From Stegostoma tigrinum (lineage: Eukaryota), in assembly GCF_030684315.1 (NCBI RefSeq), contig NC_081373.1, positions 52,686,864 to 52,750,863 of the forward strand: a stretch of 64,000 nucleotides of DNA. Reading direction: 5' to 3'. The translations under genes and the position numbers were made by a program. Positions 4,931 through 63,802 of this stretch are shown here, one piece after another. The notes under the pieces were generated by a model. The model saw only the letters and a list, made by a program, of their open reading frames with translations, did not search any database and had not been told where the DNA came from. The stretch's first letter is position 1, and each line of letters starts with the position of its first letter.

Positions 4931-5270
4931 ATTTCATAGCATCGTTACAGCGTGGAAAGAGACGATTCAGCCCATTGAGTCTCCACCAACTCTCTGAAGA
5001 GCATTCCAACCTAACCCGCGACCCTGCATTTAACATAGCTACTCTATCTAAACTGCACATCCTGGAAGATTATGGGCGATTTAGCACGGCCAAGCCACCT
5101 AATCCGCAAACCTTTGGACTGTGGGAGGAAACCAGAACATCCAGAGGAAACCCACACAGATACAGGGAGAATGCCCACACTGACAGTCACCCAAGACTGG
5201 GATCATACCCAGGTCCTTGGCACTGTGAGGCAGCAGTGCTTACATCTGAGCCAGTGTGCCATCCTTCTGC
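4931..5270 (-). mobile_element. HE1-type tRNA-derived SINE
   Basis: Reverse tRNA-like head, central TTTGGACTGTGGGAGGAAACC and the CR1-type tail. Confidence 0.9.
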
Positions 5271-11185: not shown

Positions 11186-11329
11186 GCATGTATGTCCTTG
11201 GGCCTATGATCCATGGGCCAATTTTGACATATTCGCTCATACTTGGTTAAAACCAAACCCTCAGAAGTGGCTGAGTCAATATCCTATAGCATGGATGTGA
11301 GTTTGCTCACTGAGCTGGAAGGTTAGTTT

Positions 11330-11369
11330 TCAGACGTTTCGTCACCATTCTAGGTAACATCATCAGTGA
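11330..11369 (-). ncRNA. Minimal type I hammerhead ribozyme motif
   Basis: Minus strand reads TCA-CTGATGA-T-GTTACC-TAGAAT-GGTGAC-GAAAC-GTC-TGA. Confidence 0.75.
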
Positions 11370-11456
11370 GCCTCCGACGAAGCGCTGGTGTTATGTCCCG
11401 CTTTCTATTTATCTGGTTAGGTTTCCTTGACATAACACCAGCGCTTTGTCGGAGGC

Positions 11457-11496
11457 TCACTGATGATGTTACCTAGAATGGTGACGAAACGTCTGA
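11457..11496 (+). ncRNA. Minimal type I hammerhead ribozyme motif
   Basis: TCA-CTGATGA-T-GTTACC-TAGAAT-GGTGAC-GAAAC-GTC-TGA: both core boxes, 6-bp stem II, palindromic ACGT stem III, GUC site, 3-bp stem I. Confidence 0.75.
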
Positions 11497-12399
11497 AAAC
11501 TAACCTTCCAGCTCAGCAAGCAAACTCACATCCAGAACCTCAACCTGAGCTACAAATCTTCTCAAAACTCGCTATCCTATAGCATCATTCACTACTGTAC
11601 ACCATTATGATAACACGTCCACTACATGAAGTTCAGTGATATTCAAGGAAAAGGACAACCATCATCTCCTCAGGGAAACCGAGAAGAGGCAATAGGAATT
11701 GATAACATCACCCCCATCCCCAGAATAAATAAAAGAATAGAGTAGTGTTTTACAAGATGATGTGCAGTAAATACATAAGTTCATGTTTCCACTTAAGTGA
11801 GTCAAAAAGTAAATCAGTCATCAGAAGTGCCAGTTATAAGCAAAATCTGATTTGAAAAATGAGGACTATTGGCATGATAATGTTAAGATTCAAAAATTTA
11901 CTGCTCCAAAATGAAAGATTATAAACACAACATTATGACATGCTCAACGATTCGATCACAATTGAAGAAGTGTGATTTTTCAATGATAACTAATTTTTTT
12001 TATTATTGGAAGGGATAACATTTAATGGCAATTAATTTCTGTAGTGATTTATCATACTACTAAGTTTCATCCACATAACTGAGACCTCGTGGCTGTTAGT
12101 CTCAATTACAGGCACAACAATGGTTTCAGGCCTCACTGAAAACACATTTTTAATGGTTTGCTTTTGATTCATCTAGGCTGTTCTTCAAAGCTGCCAATCC
12201 TTCTTTCACAAATAAGTTCTGCATATCAGAAAGTCAAAAACAACACGCGCTATTTTTCTGGAATTGGCAGATGCTAACATTTTAATTAAAGTTGTTTTCA
12301 ATTTAATTCTGGTGAATTTCTGACTGCCTAAAAGCAGGGTTATGGACTGGGATACTTTTGTATTCTTGACATCTGGCACAAGTGTAACATGGCCAGATG

Positions 12400-18705: not shown

Positions 18706-18834
18706 GGTGCTCCTTTTACATGGAGCACGGATTCTCCACGGAGTCTCTTTCAATCACAAACTCTGCTTTTTGTGTAATAAAATGTGAGGCTGGATGAACA
18801 CAGCAGGCCCAGCAGCATCTCAGGAGCACAAAAG

Positions 18835-18866
18835 CTGACGTTTCGGGCCTAGACCCTTCATCAGAG
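18835..18866 (-). ncRNA. Minimal hammerhead ribozyme motif
   Basis: Minus strand reads CT-CTGATGA-A-GGGT-CTAG-GCCC-GAAAC-GTC-AG. Confidence 0.7.
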
Positions 18867-19560
18867 AGGGGGATGGGGTGAGGGTTCTGAAATAAATAGG
18901 GAGAGGGGGGGAGGCGGACCGAAGATGGAGAGAAAAGAAGAAAAGAACATTGGGGAAACCAAGCGGAGGCTTGGGGACCGCTTTGCAGAACACCTCCGCA
19001 CGGTTCGCAATAAACAACTGCACCTTCCAGTCGCAAACCATTTCCACTCTCCCTCCCATTCTTTAGATGACATGTCCATCATGGGCCTCCTGCACTGCCA
19101 CAATGATGCCACCCGAAGGTTGCAGGAACAGCAACTCATATTCCACTTGGGAACCCTGCAGCCCAATGGTATCAATGTGGACTTCACCAGCTTCAAAATC
19201 TCCCCTTCCCCCACCGCATCCCAAAACCAGCCCAGTTCGTCCCCTCCCCCCACTGCACCACACAACCAGCCCAGCTCTTCCCCTCCAACCACTGCATCCC
19301 AAAACCAGTCCAACCTGTTTCTGCCTCCCTAACCTGTTCTTCCTCCTACCCATCCCTTCCTCCCACCCCAAGCCGCACCTCCATCTCCTACCTACTAACC
19401 TCATCCCACTTCCTTGACCTGTCCGTCTTCCCTGGATTGACCTATCCCCTCCCTACCTCCCCACCTATACTCTCCTCTCCACCTATCTTCTTTTCTCTCC
19501 ATCTTCGGTCCACCTCCCCCCCCCTCCCTATTTATTCCAGAACCCTCACCCCATCCCCCT

Positions 19561-19592
19561 CTCTGATGAAGGGTCTAGGCCCGAAACGTCAG
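19561..19592 (+). ncRNA. Minimal hammerhead ribozyme motif
   Basis: CT-CTGATGA-A-GGGT-CTAG-GCCC-GAAAC-GTC-AG; 4-bp stem II, ACGT palindromic stem III, only a 2-bp stem I. Confidence 0.7.
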
Positions 19593-20136
19593 CTTTTGTG
19601 CTCCTGAGATGCTGCTGGGCATGCTGTGTTCATCCAGCCTCACATTTTATTATCTTGGATTCTCCAGCATCTGCAGTTCCTATTATCTCTGCGTTTTGTG
19701 TGTTTGCTGCTCCCATATCTAACAGGTAACATGAGAATTTCACTTTGTTCTCTACTTCCACCAGGCTGCAACTGGAATTTTCACTGCCATATTTCACTCC
19801 CTCAATTTCACTGTTTGTAGGTAACTGTAGAGATTTCCTCGTGGTTACACAGATCGCAATGAATGTCCTTTGTTTAAGGCTTTAATGAATAGCATTATCA
19901 AAGCTTCAGTCAGCCAATCATAATGATGTATGCATTTTGAATTCCTAAGGTACATTGTGATTATGGGAGGTGAAAGACCAAAATCACAAAAGGAATCAGT
20001 CTCATTTTTTTTACATTCTTAGAATGTGGAGGTCACTACCAAGGCTAGCATTTATTATCTATTAAACAAGAAAAAAACAAAGAACCATGGATGCTGGGAA
20101 TCCAAAACAAAAACACAACTGAAGAAAGGTCACTAG

Positions 20137-31404: not shown

Positions 31405-34400
31405 TTCCTCATGGAAGAATTCACAGCCTTTACCTCAGATTCCCTGTCACTTCAGCAGGACTTGGTAGGGGATAAACTGCAGCCATTTTCACTTCAGTAG
31501 GAGACGGAGGACGAGATAAAATTGTGGCTACAAATGCTACTCCTTTTTTGAGGTATTTTCGGCGTTGGAGCAGATTTCCTTGAATTCTAGGAGCAGTAAT
31601 TAGTATTTTATAAGCTGTTGCATTGTTTTGGAACTTTGAGAAAATGAAAGATCAAGGTCATGGCGGTTAAAAAGGAGGAAGAGAGTCAAAGGTAGTGGCT
31701 ACATGGGAAGTGAAACAAATGGAGCAGTAAACCTGCACAGCTAACAGCCTCTGCTATTTGGTTTCAAGCTTCTCTGGGAATTGGAGTTTGTCTAAGAAAA
31801 ATTAATAAACAGCAAAATTTATAGTTTGCCTTGGAGAAACTTGTGTGGGGGAGCTCACAGCCAGGGAGCAGCTAAGTGGCTAGTTTTAAGTCTAACCTTA
31901 CTGTTTCTTTGTAAATCTGCAACAGTGAATAGAGTGGGTTCTTTTTGATTGTATGTTTTTATTGTGAGCTGTTTCTTGAATAAACTTTAAAAATATAAAA
32001 ACATAGGTACTAAGTTAGCCTGGAGCAGTGTTTTTAGAGCGATAAGACTGGGTTATCTCTGGTTCTATAGATTGTTAAGTTGCAAATATGGTCTTTAGTA
32101 GAGTGATGTGCTCTTCCTGTCAGATGTGGGAGATTAGGGAGAGGTTCTATGTTACTGATGATTATGTCTGCAGGAAGCATGCTTGGTTGCAAACCCTATC
32201 GGGCAGCATGGATTGGTTGGAGCTGCAGTTAGAGGCTACGAGGAATTTACAGGAGCCTGGGATCGCAGTTGCAAGGAGAAGAGATAAACTGAAGACGCAG
32301 TCAGGTAGATGGGTGACCTCAAGGAAAAGTAAGAGAAGGAGACAGGTAGTGCAAGAGCCTCCTGTGGCAATCCCCATCACAAACAAGTATGCTGTTTTAG
32401 AAAATATAGGGGGTGTTGGACTCATAGGGAAATATAGCACTGACTAACAGGTCTCTGGTACCAAGACTGGCCTAATGTAATGAGGGATATGCCAGGTTCC
32501 AAGCGATTAATTGTGATAGGGGACTCTCTAGTCAGAGGCACAGACAGATGTTTCTGTGGCCAACCACGAGACATCAGAATGGTTGCTGCCTCTCTCTTGT
32601 CAGGATATTTCAGAGAGGGGGCAGAATAGTCTCAAAGGGGAGTGGAACCAGTAGAAGGTCATTGTACATGTTGGAATTAATGACATAGGGCAAGAAAGGA
32701 ACAAGATTCTGAAGAGAGAATAGAGGAAATTAGGCAAGAATTTCAAAAGGCGGTTCACAAGTGTATTAGTATCTGGAATAAGCCCTGTGCCATGAGCTAG
32801 TGAGGGTAGGAATTGGAGAATAAATAAATGCATTACTGAGGAGGAGGTAGTGCAGGGGAAAAGGATTCACATTATTGGATCATTGGTATCTTTCGTGAGG
32901 CAGAAGTAACCTCCATAAGAAGGATGGATTCCACCTGAATTGAAAGGGGACTAATATACTGGTGGGGAGATTTGCTAGATCTGCTCAGGAGACTTTAAAC
33001 TAGTAAGGGTTATGGGGAACCCAGGGAGATAGTGAGGAAAGAGAGCAGTGCGAGACTGGTACATGTGGGAAAAGGATTAAATCAAACAGTCAGGGCAGGC
33101 AGGATCAAAGCAGAAAATGAGGTAGGACTGATAAATTAAACTGTATTTATTTCAATGTGAGAGGCCTAACAGGTTGGACGGGTGATCTCAGGGCATGGTT
33201 AGGAACATGGGACTGGGATATCATAGCAATTACAGAACACTGGCGCAGGGATGGACAGGACTGGCAGCTTAATGTTCCGGGGTATAAATGCTACAGGAAG
33301 GTTAGAAAGGTTGGGAAGAGAAGAGGGAAAGTGGCATTTTTCATTATGGATAAAATTATGGCTGTACCTAGGGATGATATTCCTGGAAGTACATCCAGAA
33401 AGGTCAGTTGGGTGGAACTGAGAAATAAGAAATGATTACCTTATTGGATTACCTTATTACCTAATAGACTGCAGGAAATTGAGAAACAAATTTGTAAGGA
33501 GATCTCCGTTATCTGTAAGGATAATAGGGTGGTTATGGTAGGGGGGTTTTAATTTTCCAAACATAGACTGAAACTGCCATAGTGTTCACAACTTGGATGG
33601 AGAGGAATTTGTTAAGTGTGTACAAGGAAATTCTCTGATTAAGCATGTGGATGTACCTACTAGAGAAGGTGCAAAATTTGACTTACTCTTGGGAAATAAG
33701 ACAGGGCAGGTGACTGAGGAGTCAGTGGGGGAGCATTTTGGGGCCAGTGACCATAATTTTATGGAAAAGGATAAGGTCTAAAAATTAAAGTTCTAAATTG
33801 GAGGAAGGCCAATTTTGATGATATGAGGCAAGAACTTTCAAAAGGCAGATGGGCAGTTATTTGCAGGTAAATGGATGGTTGGAAAGTGGGAAGCCTTCAA
33901 AACTGAAGTTACAGGAGTCCAGAGACAGCATGTTCCTGTTAGGCTGAAGGGCAACGCTGGTAGGTGTAGGGAATGCAGGATCACTCAAGGGGAAGCGCAT
34001 GTCAGGTACAGATGGCAGAGAGTGATTGAATCCCAGAACTGTAACAAGGCAGTGGGAGTATACTTAAGAAGGAAACCATGAGGGCAAAGAGGGGACACAA
34101 GATAGCTTTGGCAAATAAGGCTAAGGAGAATCCAAAGGGATTCTACAAATACATTAAACAAAAAGGGTAACTAGGGAGAGAATACAGCCCCTTAAAGATC
34201 AGCAAGGCCACTTATGTGTAGAACGGCAGGAAATGGGTGAGATACGAAATGAGTATTTTACATCAGTGTTTACTGTGGAGAAGCATATGGAAGATAGAAC
34301 ATAGAACATAGAACATAGAACATTACAGCACAGTACAGGCCCTTTGGCCCTCGATGTTGTGCCGACCTGTCATACCGATCTGAAGCCCATCTAACCTACA

Positions 34401-35970
34401 CTATTCCATGTACGTCCATATGCTTGTCCAATGACGACTTAAATGTACCTAAAGTTGGTGAATCTACTACCGTTGCAGGCAAAGCGTTCCATTCCCTTAC
34501 TACTCTCAGACTAAAGAAACTACCTCTGACATCCGTCCTATATCTTTCACCCCTCAATTTAAAGCTATGACCCCTCGTGCTCGCCGTCACCATCCTAGGA
34601 AAAAGGCTCTCCCTATCCACCCTATCTAACCCTCTGATTATTTTATATGTTTCAATTAAGTCACCTCTCAACCTTCTTCTCTCTAATGAAAATAGCCTCA
34701 AGTCCCTTAGCCTTTCCTCATAAGACCTTCCCTCCATACCAGGCAACATCCTAGTAAATCTCCTCTGCACCCTTTCCAAAGCTTCCACATCCTTCTTATA
34801 ATGCGGTGACCAGAACTGTACGCAATACTCCAAGTGCGGCCACACCAGAGTTTTGTACAGCTTCACTATAACCTCTTGGTTCCGGAACTCGATCCCTCTA
34901 TTAATAAAAGCTAAAACACTGTATGCCTTCTTAACAGCCCTGTCAACCTGGGTGGCAACTTTCAAGAATCTGTGTACATGGACACCGAGATCTCTCTGCT
35001 CATCTACACTGCTAAGAATCTTACCATTAGCCCTGTACTTTGCCTTCCAGTTACTCCTACCAAAGTGCATCACCTCACACTTGTCTGCATTAAACTCCAT
35101 TTGCCACCTCTCAGCCCAGCACTGCAGCTTATCTATGTCTCTCTGCAACCTACAGCATCCTTCGTCACTATCCACAACTCCACCAACCTTAGTGTCATCT
35201 GCAAATTTACTAACCCATCCTTCTACGCCCTCATCCAGGTCATTTCTAAAAATGACAAACAGCAGTGGACCCAACACCGACCCTTGCGGTACACCACTAG
35301 TAACTGGTCTCCAGGCTGAACATTTCCCATCAACTATCACCCTCTGTCTTCTTTCAGCAAGCCAATTTCCAATCCAAACTGCTATATCTCCCACAATTCC
35401 ATTCCTCCGCATTTTGTACAATAGTCTATTGTGGGGAACCTTATTGAACGCCTTGCTGAAATCCATATACACCACATCAACCGGTTTACTCTCATCTACC
35501 TGTTTGGTCACCTTCTCAAAGAACTCGATAAGATTTGTGAGACACGAACTTCCCTTCACAAAACCGTGCTGACTATCCCTAATAAATTTATTCTTTTCTA
35601 GATGATTATAAATCCTATCCCTTATAACCTTTTCCAACACTTTACCAACAACTGAGGTAAGAATTGTGGGGAAATAAACAGCAACACCTTGAAAACCGTC
35701 CATATTATTGAGGAGGAGGCACTGAATGTCTTAAAATGCATAAAGATGGATAAATCCAAGGACCTGATCAGGCGTACCCTAGAACTCAGTGGGCAGTGAG
35801 GGAAGGGATTACTGGGTCTCTTCCTGAGATATTTGTATCATCGATAGCCACGGGAGAGGTGCTGGGAGGCTGAAGGTTGGCTGACATGGTGCCACTATTT
35901 AAGAAAGGTGGTCAGGAAAAGCCAGGGAACTATAGGCTGGTGAGCCTGACATCGGTGATGGGCATGTTGT
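31405..35970 (+). mobile_element. Long decayed CR1 LINE (5'UTR, ORF1, ORF2 N-terminal half), interrupted at ~34297-35659
   Basis: ORF1 from 32088 (CSSCQMW...CRK zinc finger, then SGNH-esterase-like IVIGDSLVRG and DGFHLN). ORF2 endonuclease motifs WDIIAITE, PTREGAKFDLLLGN and SDHN. Resumes at 35660 through PLFKKGGQEKPGNYR. Many stops. Confidence 0.9.
34293..35659 (-). mobile_element. Young 5'-truncated CR1 LINE with open RT frame
   Basis: About 420 uninterrupted codons (QHGF, YMDFSKAF, GVPQGSVLGP, FADD, YCVQFWSP), stop at 34396, (ATAGAAC)n tail. Confidence 0.95.
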
Positions 35971-37009: not shown

Positions 37010-37522
37010 CTGGATGTAAGTTTGCTCACTGAGCTGGAAGGTTAGTTTTCAGACGTTTCGTCACCATTCTAGGTAACGTCATCAGTGAGCCTCTGACGAA
37101 GCGCTGGTGTTATGTCCCGCTTTCTATTTATCTGGTTAGGTTTCCTTGGGTTGGTGATGTCATTTCCTGCATTGGTGATGTCATTTCCTGTTCTTTTTCG
37201 CAGAGGATGGTAGATGGGCTCCATATCAATGTGTTTGTTGATGAAGTTCCGGTTGGAATGCCATGCTTCTAGGAATTCTCATGCGTGTCTCCGTTTGGCT
37301 TGTCCTAGGATGGATGTGTTGTCCCAATCAAAGTGGTGTCCTTCCTCATCTGTATGTAGGGATACGAGTGATAGTGGGTCATGTCGTTTTGTGGCTAGTT
37401 GATGTTCATGTATCCTGGTGGCTAGCTTTCTGCCTGTTTGTCCAGTGTAGCGTTTGTCACAGTTCTTGCAAAGTATTTTGTAGATGACGTTCGTTTTGCT
37501 TGTTGTCTGTATAGGGTCTTTT
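37010..37522 (-). mobile_element. Penelope-like element 3' end (GIY-YIG and terminal repeat with intact hammerhead motif at 37049-37088)
   Basis: NVIYKILCKNCDKRYTGQTGRKLATRIHEH; minus strand TCA-CTGATGA-C-GTTACC-TAGAAT-GGTGAC-GAAAC-GTC-TGA. Confidence 0.93.
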
Positions 37523-48030: not shown

Positions 48031-48421
48031 TAAGTACATTTAGGAATAAGAAGGTCTTGTGGCACTGGGTCATAAGGTCCACATTCAACTCTCCCTCTGC
48101 CTTGGATGTGTTGTCTAACATATGCAACAGGTTGTTTTTTTTAAGGGGTGAATGGGCTCTGGGCTACTGAGTGCATGTTATGAGCGGTGTGGCTGCTTAG
48201 TCAAATTTTATTTCTTGCAAGTATTATGGACCAGGCCAAAACCCACTAAAATATATTGAGAAGGTAGTGTAGACCCTAACTTTTTCTTATTTTACAGGCG
48301 AGTGCTAGGCGTTGCATTCTGGATGCAATTTGATTGGCCAGACTACCAGTCTTGAAGCAAATCACACTTTGTTCATACAGCATTGTTAAGATACTACAAA
48401 AGGAAGAAGAAATTGGAATAA

Positions 48422-49958
48422 GATTGGTAGCTGGGGTTGTGGATGTTGCGGTTGGTTCGCTCGCCGAGCTGGTTCGTCAGTTCATAGACATTTCATTACC
48501 CTGCTGGGTAACGTCATCAGTGCAGCCTCTGATGAAGCGCTGTCGTGTTTTCCCACCTTGCATTTAAATTCTGGAGTCCCTTGAGCTGAATTACCTCACT
48601 TCCAGTTTTCCTTTGGTCTAGCTCTATGTATTTATCGATGGCTTTCTTCACGGAGAACGAGGCTTCTTGAAATTCCTGTGCTTGTCTCTGCTTTGCCTGT
48701 CCCAAGCTCCTGGTGCTGTCCCAGTCGAATTGGTGGCTCTCCTTATCCATGTGGATGGAGGTGAGTGAGTATTGGTCATGTCTTTTTGTCGCCAATTGAT
48801 CGTGTGCCCTTGTGGTTAATTGCCTTCCTGTTTGTCCAATTTAGTATTAGTCACAGTCTTCGCAGGGAATCTTGTATATGACAATGGTCCTGTCCATAGT
48901 GGGTAGTGGGTCTGGGTGTGCAGTTGGTGTAGGGATGATGTGGGTTTGCGTGCTACTCTGATGCCCAGTGATTGTCGGAGTCTTGTGGTCAGTGCAGATG
49001 TGTTCCTGATGTAAGGTAGCGTGGTGAGTGTGTCGGGGCATGTAATATCTTCCTGTTGTTGTGTGTGTGATATGAATCTTTGTCATTATTAAACGGGCCA
49101 AACTAGTGGAGTCGCACAAACTAATAAACAACACCCTCACTGGGATCAGATTCACCAGAGATGAGGAAAGGAACAAACAGCTTCTATTCCTGGATGTCAT
49201 GGTGGAACAAAGGTACACAGGAAAGCCCCACACACTGACCAAGTACTGAATTTCAACAGCTTTCGCTCTCACACACACAAACGAAGTTGCATGAGAACAT
49301 TATTTCAAAGGGCAATAACGCACTTGAGCAGCACAGAGTTAGGCCCAAAGAAGAGTACCTCTTCCAAGTATTCAAAGACAATGGATACCCAAAAAACTGG
49401 GTCAGAAAATGCCTATCACATGCACAACAACAGGAAGATACTACACACCCCAATGCACGCATCACGCTACCTTACATCAGGAACACACCCAAACTGACCA
49501 CAAGACCCCTACGACCACTAGGTGTCGGAGTAGCACACAGGTCAAGCAGAGACAAGCACAGGAATTCCTAGAAGCCTGGTACTCCACTAAGAAAGCCATT
49601 AATAAACACATAGAGCTAGACCCCATATACACTCAATTGTGAAGGAAAACTGGAAGTGAGGTAAGAGAAATAATGGGAACTGCAGATGCTGGAGAATCCA
49701 AGATAATAAAGTGTGAAGCTGGATGAACACAGCAGGCCAAGCAGCATCTCAGGAGCACTGCTTGGCTTGCTGTGTTCATCCAGCTTCACACTTTATTATC
49801 CTGGAAGTGAGGTAATCCAGCTCAACGGACCCCAGAGTTTAAATACCTGGCAGGAAAACACAACAGAGCTTCATCAGAGGCTGCACTGATGATGTTACCT
49901 AGCAGGGTAAAGAAATGTATGCGGAAAAACAAACCAACTCGGCGAGCGAACCAACCAC
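48422..49958 (-). mobile_element. Penelope-like element with a long inverted segment
   Basis: Perfect 15-bp TSD AAGAAATTGGAATAA (48407-48421, 49959-49973). Minus arm has IVIYKIPCEDCD (GIY-YIG); plus arm has FLDVMVE, RTLFQRA and ITLPYI. Degenerate hammerheads at 48484-48523(-) and 49883-49922(+). Confidence 0.9.
49665..49800 (-). mobile_element. Penelope-derived palindromic mini-element nested in another Penelope
   Basis: Perfect 15-bp TSD CTGGAAGTGAGGTAA (49650-49664, 49801-49815); ~43-bp inverted arms. Confidence 0.9.
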
Positions 49959-57593: not shown

Positions 57594-57993
57594 GATACAT
57601 GAACATCAACTAGCCACAAAACGACATGACCCACTATCACTCGTATCCTTACATACAGATAAGGAAGGACACCACTTTGATTGGGACAACACATCCATCC
57701 TAGGACAAACCAAACAGAGACATGCACGAGAATTCCTAGAAGCATGGCATTCCAACCGGAACTCCATCAACAAACACATTGATTTGGAGCCAATCTACCA
57801 TCCTCTGAGAAAAAGAACAGGAAATGACATCAACACAGGAAATGACATCACCGACCCAAGGAAACCTAACCAGATAAATAGAAAGCGGGACATAACACCA
57901 GCGCTTCGTCGGAGGCTCACTGTTGATGTTACCTAGAATGGTGGCGAAACGTCTGAAAACGAATGTTCCAGCTCAGCGAGCAAACTCACATCC
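57594..57993 (+). mobile_element. Penelope-like element 3' end
   Basis: IHEHQLATKRHDPLSLVSLH...REFLEAWHS..SINKH (GIY-YIG end). Terminal repeat has a mutated hammerhead (CTGTTGA). Flanking AAAGTATTG. Confidence 0.9.
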
Positions 57994-63579: not shown

Positions 63580-63802
63580 GTAACACGGTGTGAAGCTGGA
63601 TGAACACAGCAGGCCAAGCAGCATCACGGGAGCAGGAAAGTTGACATTTCGGGTCGAGACCCTTCTTCAGAAAATCCAACTTCTTCTGAAGAAGGGTCTT
63701 GACCTGAAACGTCAACTTTCCTGCTCCTCTGATACTGCTTGGCCTGGTGTGTTCATCCAGCTTCACACCATGTTATCTCAGATTCTCCAGCATCAGTTCC
63801 TA
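63580..63802 (+). mobile_element. Penelope-derived palindromic element with two hammerhead motifs
   Basis: ~93-bp inverted arms. CTGAAGA-A-GGGTC-TT-GACCT-GAAAC-GTC at 63686-63713 (+) with a mirror copy at ~63640-63672 (-). TSD CTATCACG(C/T)GTACC. Confidence 0.88.

Follow-up and report, generated by a model that had tools for sequence, protein, structure and literature searches.

Architecture of the locus

The window, that is, the whole 64,000-nucleotide stretch of Stegostoma tigrinum DNA analysed here, contains a 280-base palindromic insertion, and all positions without a contig name refer to this window. A preliminary description had reported a palindrome with arms of about 106 bp, a 38-nt unpaired tail, a perfect 13-bp target-site duplication (TSD) and an intact hammerhead ribozyme core on each strand. 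The observation is real, and every one of these parts could be located, the cores at 11460-11493 on the plus strand and 11366-11333 on the minus strand. The features are as follows.

11280..11292, no strand: target-site duplication, left, 13 bp, exact direct repeat
11293..11429, minus strand: Penelope end, tail-less 5'-truncated copy of 137 nt, apparent loop included
11333..11366, minus strand: minimal type I hammerhead core
11416..11440, no strand: inversion junction with shared base 11429, unique in the genome
11429..11572, plus strand: Penelope end, tailed 5'-truncated copy of 144 nt
11460..11493, plus strand: minimal type I hammerhead core
11478..11572, plus strand: start of the parent ORF, with ATG within the hammerhead and the frame open through the tail
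11535..11572, plus strand: 38-nt 'tail' of a Penelope-like element (PLE), cf. PMC11167929
11573..11585, no strand: target-site duplication, right, 13 bp, exact direct repeat

The inverted arms (11292-11397 and 11429-11534) are 106 nt long and 97% complementary, with 31 nt in between, and they differ from each other at three positions, none of which lies within the hammerhead core. The unpaired tail occupies the 38 nt from 11535 to 11572, and the flanking direct repeats (11280-11292 and 11573-11585) are identical over 13 nt. The 31 nt that appear as a loop continue the element sequence of the minus-strand arm, as other copies match the query over positions 1-137 at 96-98%; judged by this alignment, they are no spacer but a part of that arm. 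The insert is composed of a minus arm of 137 nt (11293-11429), which terminates at the tail-less terminus of the family, and a plus arm of 144 nt (11429-11572), with one base, 11429, in common. Measured from the tail end, the arms stop at 144 and 176 nt, and the cut site lies at 79 nt. The earlier statement that the insertion holds no coding sequence is nearly right; the exception is the right arm, where the parent ORF is kept over its first ~31 codons, along with the last codons of the preceding unit. The contigs of four sequencing runs consist mostly of other copies of the family; those of three runs span 11550-12000 and showed no differences at the locus, and no empty-site joint was found for it among 15 of 77 joints listed.

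Taken together with the evidence given below, the insert is best read as the hammerhead-bearing end (pLTR) of a Penelope/Poseidon element present in two 5'-truncated, head-to-head copies within a 13-bp target duplication, likely produced here in one event and predicted to be inert, for which a probability of about 0.88 is given.

Parent element and comparison with known elements

The identity of the parent was obtained from longer copies of the family, two of them in the window (37012-37520 and 57594-57993) and 30 at fetched loci. These copies extend upstream of the hammerhead into an ORF for reverse transcriptase (RT) and GIY-YIG endonuclease, which ends in the hammerhead. The RVT_1 domain was detected above the Pfam cut-off (E 1e-8 to 1e-11), and GIY-YIG fell below it (E 0.002-0.009), though in the expected place and with a VIY..YIG motif present. 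The order of RT followed by a C-terminal GIY-YIG, the latter below cut-off, is that of an EN+ PLE. The copies at 37012-37520 (minus strand) and 57594-57993 (plus strand) are tail-less; both end at the tail-less terminus and carry the endonuclease end of the ORF, and no inverted arm was seen at either.

A near-complete but frame-broken element, L101, consists of a pLTR, about 2.5 kb with the ORF, a second pLTR, a short 5' inversion and a single tail, and it lies within a 12-bp target duplication. Its pLTRs (2444-2661 and 4949-5156 in the numbering of L101) result from a partial tandem arrangement and hold the hammerhead and the ORF start, as in EN+ PLEs. The ORF begins at an ATG inside the hammerhead and continues through the tail, and the right arm in the window does likewise. 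Within the linker that joins RT to the endonuclease, most translated copies had no cysteine from the KNGYP motif region to the VIYKIPC motif, and L101 had one. By the criterion stated in PMC8557442, this lack of a cysteine cluster points to Penelope/Poseidon rather than Neptune.

Typical PLE insertions are described as having an inverted 5'-truncated pLTR, a one-sided tail of 30-40 bp and a TSD (PMC8557442, PMC3846280), and the present insert contains an inverted 5'-truncated copy, a tail of such length at one end and a TSD. EN+ PLE units such as Adineta Pen2a/Pen2 (PMC3846280; PMC8557442) are alike in the head-to-head inverted pLTR, in the tail on one arm with a TSD, and in the first ORF codons contained in pLTR and tail. 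Compared with Pen2a/Pen2, the arms at the locus are cut to ~140 nt without an ORF between them, and the TSD measures 12-17 bp in the Stegostoma family against 8-10 in the Adineta elements. The Poseidon element of Anolis carolinensis (PAc, PMC11167929) also encodes RT and then a C-terminal GIY-YIG, starts its ORF within the hammerhead and has two termini that bound a tail. The spacing differs: here the tail lies 57-95 nt past the ATG, and in PAc the RT starts are found 111-118 nt into the ORF. Counted from the first base of the ATG, the cut follows after 16 nt here and after 26 nt in PAc.

The link to the minimal hammerheads of PLEs, which the preliminary description had drawn, is right. Like the metazoan minimal hammerheads of PMC4209133, those of the locus have a type I core, an extra base before stem II, a G-C closing pair and a palindromic stem III; stem II is 6 bp at the locus, or 7 with a U-G pair, and differs in this from that set. 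The same source describes dual minimal hammerheads that lie on opposite strands at a distance of ~100-700 bp, and connects motifs of this kind with truncated PLEs. The architecture, comprising an inverted pLTR, tail and TSD with hammerhead pairs on opposite strands, is already in print in these sources. Among the listings of an open-literature search, no paper dealt with the Stegostoma family or with PLE arms truncated in pairs. The single locus carries little weight, as insertion scars of this kind form a large class, and the hint of a family-level mechanism is the only part that may interest specialists.

Abundance of the family and census of palindromes

Family counts were obtained by genome-wide pattern searches. 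Exact matches number 6,988 for the 34-nt hammerhead core and 5,322 for the 29-nt tail, with none for the control pattern in either case; the difference between 6,988 and 0 excludes chance as the source of the cores. Among the first 100 cores on contig C1, neighbours within 5 kb formed 18 head-to-head pairs, 1 tandem pair and 0 tail-to-tail pairs. The core-to-core gaps in neighbour pairs range from 16 to 2,802 nt, and the gap is 93 nt at the locus.

The palindromes were sampled from the first 100 consecutive tail matches on contig C1 (its first ~58 Mb), a sample that favours young copies, as it demands an exact 29-nt tail. An inverted arm adjoins the tailed end at 67 of these matches, 29 are simple, 3 adjoin other pieces in the same sense and 1 runs off. 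Eight of the 67, in which the inverted arm stops outside the range of 28-47 nt before the tail end, were set aside, and the 59 kept palindromes (59 of 100 tailed ends) have a fixed tail-less outer end. The two fixed outer ends of the family are 38 nt apart. A TSD of 12-17 bp, with one mismatch allowed, flanks 50 of the 59. Their sizes run from 91 to 1,763 bp with a median of 409, and the core is present in both arms of 44. Small palindromes of at most 330 bp with both cores number 16 per 100 tailed ends; if that rate held genome-wide, several hundred would be expected by extrapolation from the 5,322 exact tails.

One-off scar or propagating unit

The junction between the arms bears directly on whether the palindrome moves as such. 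The 25-mer across the junction of the locus occurs a single time in the 3.2-Gb genome, and 58 distinct pairs of junction coordinates were counted among the 59 sampled palindromes. One junction does recur, with seven matches at six sites, and it carries the tail on one arm at two sites and on the other arm at four; a junction with the tail on either arm must have arisen at least twice. Owing to the varied junctions, the unique junction of the locus and the recurrence in either polarity, the palindrome is, on these sequence comparisons, rebuilt at every insertion and there is no travelling unit. The palindrome in the window was likely built once, at this site, in one insertion event.

The preliminary description had also considered a retrozyme-like non-autonomous unit that would propagate as such in the genome, and had named differing junctions as the observation that would speak against it; this is what was found. 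Non-LTR retrozymes (PMC7229834; bioRxiv 10.64898/2026.07.22.740005) resemble the locus in being short, non-coding, equipped with a type I hammerhead and derived from or mobilised by PLEs. Moreover, the best 40 genome hits share overall size and layout in 40 of 40 cases, a few junction coordinates recur, and one junction has seven matches. Yet these 40 hits, although selected for their similarity to the query, fall into 32 different coordinate pairs, the unselected sample forms a continuum of sizes, and one pair of sites of the recurring junction is a segmental duplication. Retrozymes are further described as head-to-tail repeats with canonical hammerheads and a circular RNA (PMC7229834; bioRxiv 10.64898/2026.07.22.740005), whereas the locus has a head-to-head pair, the prevailing arrangement of neighbours among the first 100 cores on contig C1, and a private junction. 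A propagating palindromic unit is accordingly the least credible of the readings considered and can be set at close to nil.

One pair of fetched loci, L091 and L092 (C19:4987500-5000500), consists of near-identical palindromic insertions with arms of about 600 and 1,830 nt, in opposite orientation and a few kb apart, and is probably a local inverted duplication.

Hammerhead motif and predicted folding

Each strand of the insert presents the order CTGATGA-N-stem II-GAAAC-GTC. On the plus strand, CTGATGA lies at 11460-66 and stem II at 11468-73/11480-85, followed by GAAAC-GTC, and the cut is predicted after 11493. The conserved core, stem II and palindromic stem III together are those of a minimal type I hammerhead of PLEs. 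In computed folds of either isolated arm, stem II is sound, with a pair probability of 0.98-1.0, and the 43-nt core folds better than all 200 of 200 shuffles. Of the Rfam hammerhead models that had been proposed as a check, none matched in a local search at the insert at E<=10, and zero Rfam families reached gathering score across the window. The only matches at the locus, all below gathering, were to miRNA-precursor and snoRNA models; an identity of this kind was rejected, as these scores are produced by the hairpin.

The full insert folds very differently from its parts. Its computed energy is -208 kcal/mol, against -26 for the tailed arm alone, and the probability of stem II in it is 0 on both strands. 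The same value of 0 was obtained for plus-strand nascent prefixes ending at 11494-11510, and whichever side transcription comes from, the RNA contains the antisense copy ahead of the sense ribozyme. The ribozyme in a read-through RNA is thus predicted to be locked within a long hairpin, co-transcriptionally too, and the folding models predict an inert insert. The earlier expectation that such an RNA would pair with its own antisense holds as a computation. Furthermore, metazoan minimal hammerheads are described as inactive as monomers and weak as dimers (PMC4209133), and the Anolis Poseidon hammerhead as needing protein for activity (PMC11167929). The two hammerheads would be passengers of the pLTR. 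Only 4 of 158 sampled arm ends fall within 3 nt of the cut site, where this small sample has no peak.

These folds also bear on regulatory co-option, in which the insertion would act as a self-silencing ribozyme switch or as a source of dsRNA or small RNA directed at the Penelope family. The ~106-bp hairpin would arise in any read-through RNA, and the locus is a possible dsRNA source according to the model. As the core stands in both arms of 44 of the 59 palindromes, such hairpins are numerous and could jointly feed small-RNA silencing of the family. A switch is unlikely because no second fold state is predicted, stem II being absent from the whole insert and its prefixes alike, and the self-silencing switch of the preliminary description was given up for that reason. 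Additionally, nothing sets the copy at the locus apart from other copies of the family, and the published inactivity of monomers and need for protein count against it as well. Co-option in either form is very improbable, if slightly less so than a propagating unit.

Proposed mechanism of insertion

The preferred reading of the locus as paired Penelope ends can be extended to a route of formation. The protein of the element would nick both target strands about 13 bp apart, and each 3'-OH would prime one cDNA, one from the tail end and the other from an internal start 38 nt upstream. Both cDNAs would halt early, after 144 and about 137 nt had been copied, and their 3' ends would be joined across the 1-base overlap and then filled in. 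This two-nick priming is inferred from the end positions and by analogy with the Anolis element. According to PMC11167929, both target strands are cut and extended in vitro by the Poseidon protein of Anolis, a predicted dimer, reverse transcription starts at two nearby internal sites bounding the tail, and hammerhead cleavage is dispensable for insertion in vitro. These two start sites agree with the two fixed outer ends of the Stegostoma family.

An alternative accepts the same Penelope origin and derives the inverted arm from self-priming or fold-back copying of one strand, a hypothesis found in PMC3846280. Several features of the 59 palindromes agree with it. In 35 of 59, the two arms stop no more than 30 nt apart, compared with a permutation mean of 7.7 and a maximum of 17 in 10,000, and when both arms are at least 250 nt long, paired stops occur in 12 of 20 against 2.7 expected; fold-back or a shared template predicts paired stopping too. 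Rare variants are shared between the arms of one insertion in 20%, against 2.4% across loci. At one common variant site, 72 nt from the tail end, both arms carry the same state in 43 of 45 pairs, which is partly an age effect, as T-type arms are younger (1.6% against 3.0% from the majority). Both the rare-variant sharing and this agreement fit a fold-back or single-template model equally well. The junctions comprise 22 overlaps of 1-8 nt, which also suit fold-back, 9 blunt joints and 28 inserts.

Against fold-back stands the length of the arms, since the tail-less arm is the longer one in 37 of 59 palindromes (shorter in 18, equal in 4) and also at the locus (176 against 144 nt from the tail end), and a longer tail-less arm is not obtainable by fold-back from a tailed cDNA. 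Moreover, the outer end of the tail-less arm is fixed at the second start site. Common transversion variants also differ between the arms, in 5 of 26 pairs at one site and 4 of 13 at another, which exceeds the 4% allowed for post-insertion mutation, and at a third variant site in 10 of 94, with decayed states pooled. Fold-back is therefore judged improbable, and the paired stopping points together with the longer tail-less arms favour double priming over simple fold-back.

Under double priming, the palindromes may be a fossil record in which a dimeric protein primes one cDNA per nick and the two stop in step, with a minority of insertions having arms from two element RNAs. This extended account is tentative and stands somewhat below even odds. 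If the reading of a dimer with two cDNAs is true, it would explain the inverted-pLTR structure that is listed as unexplained in the field. The family is a useful test set for how inverted pLTRs form, a question named as open in PMC8557442.

Two further candidates were tried and abandoned. A template switch at the hammerhead cut was rejected, as the arms share rare variants to the same degree whatever the distance from the end. In 6 of 21 long palindromes the arms differ in an 11-nt block, which was considered as a subfamily marker proving two templates; it was dropped, since it is a micro-inversion with no significant linkage to any of 120 other sites in 165 copies. This micro-inversion lies in the endonuclease coding end, ~255 nt upstream of the tail end and between short inverted repeats, is present in 24 of 165 copies, and may form again and again in the course of copying. 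In addition, the region ~185-245 nt upstream of the tail end holds a 21-nt unit in one or two copies, and the arms of one insertion frequently differ in it, by slippage or different templates. Arm ends peak at 130 and 197 nt, which may reflect extension of the alignment over a local palindrome and over a 21-nt repeat.

Other elements in the window and in sampled copies

A second hammerhead family is represented in the window at 18774-18940 and 19485-19651, with a shorter minimal hammerhead in head-to-head arrangement, arms of 167 nt that are 97.6% identical, and cores at 18864 (minus strand) and 19563 (plus strand); a related core lies at 63686 (plus strand). Pieces of a related family, with 74-79% identity and an altered hammerhead region, occupy 48420-48566 and 49860-49935. 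The minus-strand frame at 34399-35730 encodes 444 aa with an RT domain (RVT_1, E 2e-29) and is probably a LINE fragment. Among the 100 sampled tail matches, 11 have a common A-rich-ended sequence resembling a LINE 3' end joined inside the hammerhead loop or stem II, 92-96 nt from the tail end (L185, L193, L203, L205, L211, L218, L219, L223, L224, L226 and L242, all on contig C1), which suggests that a second element targets the hammerhead ribozyme.
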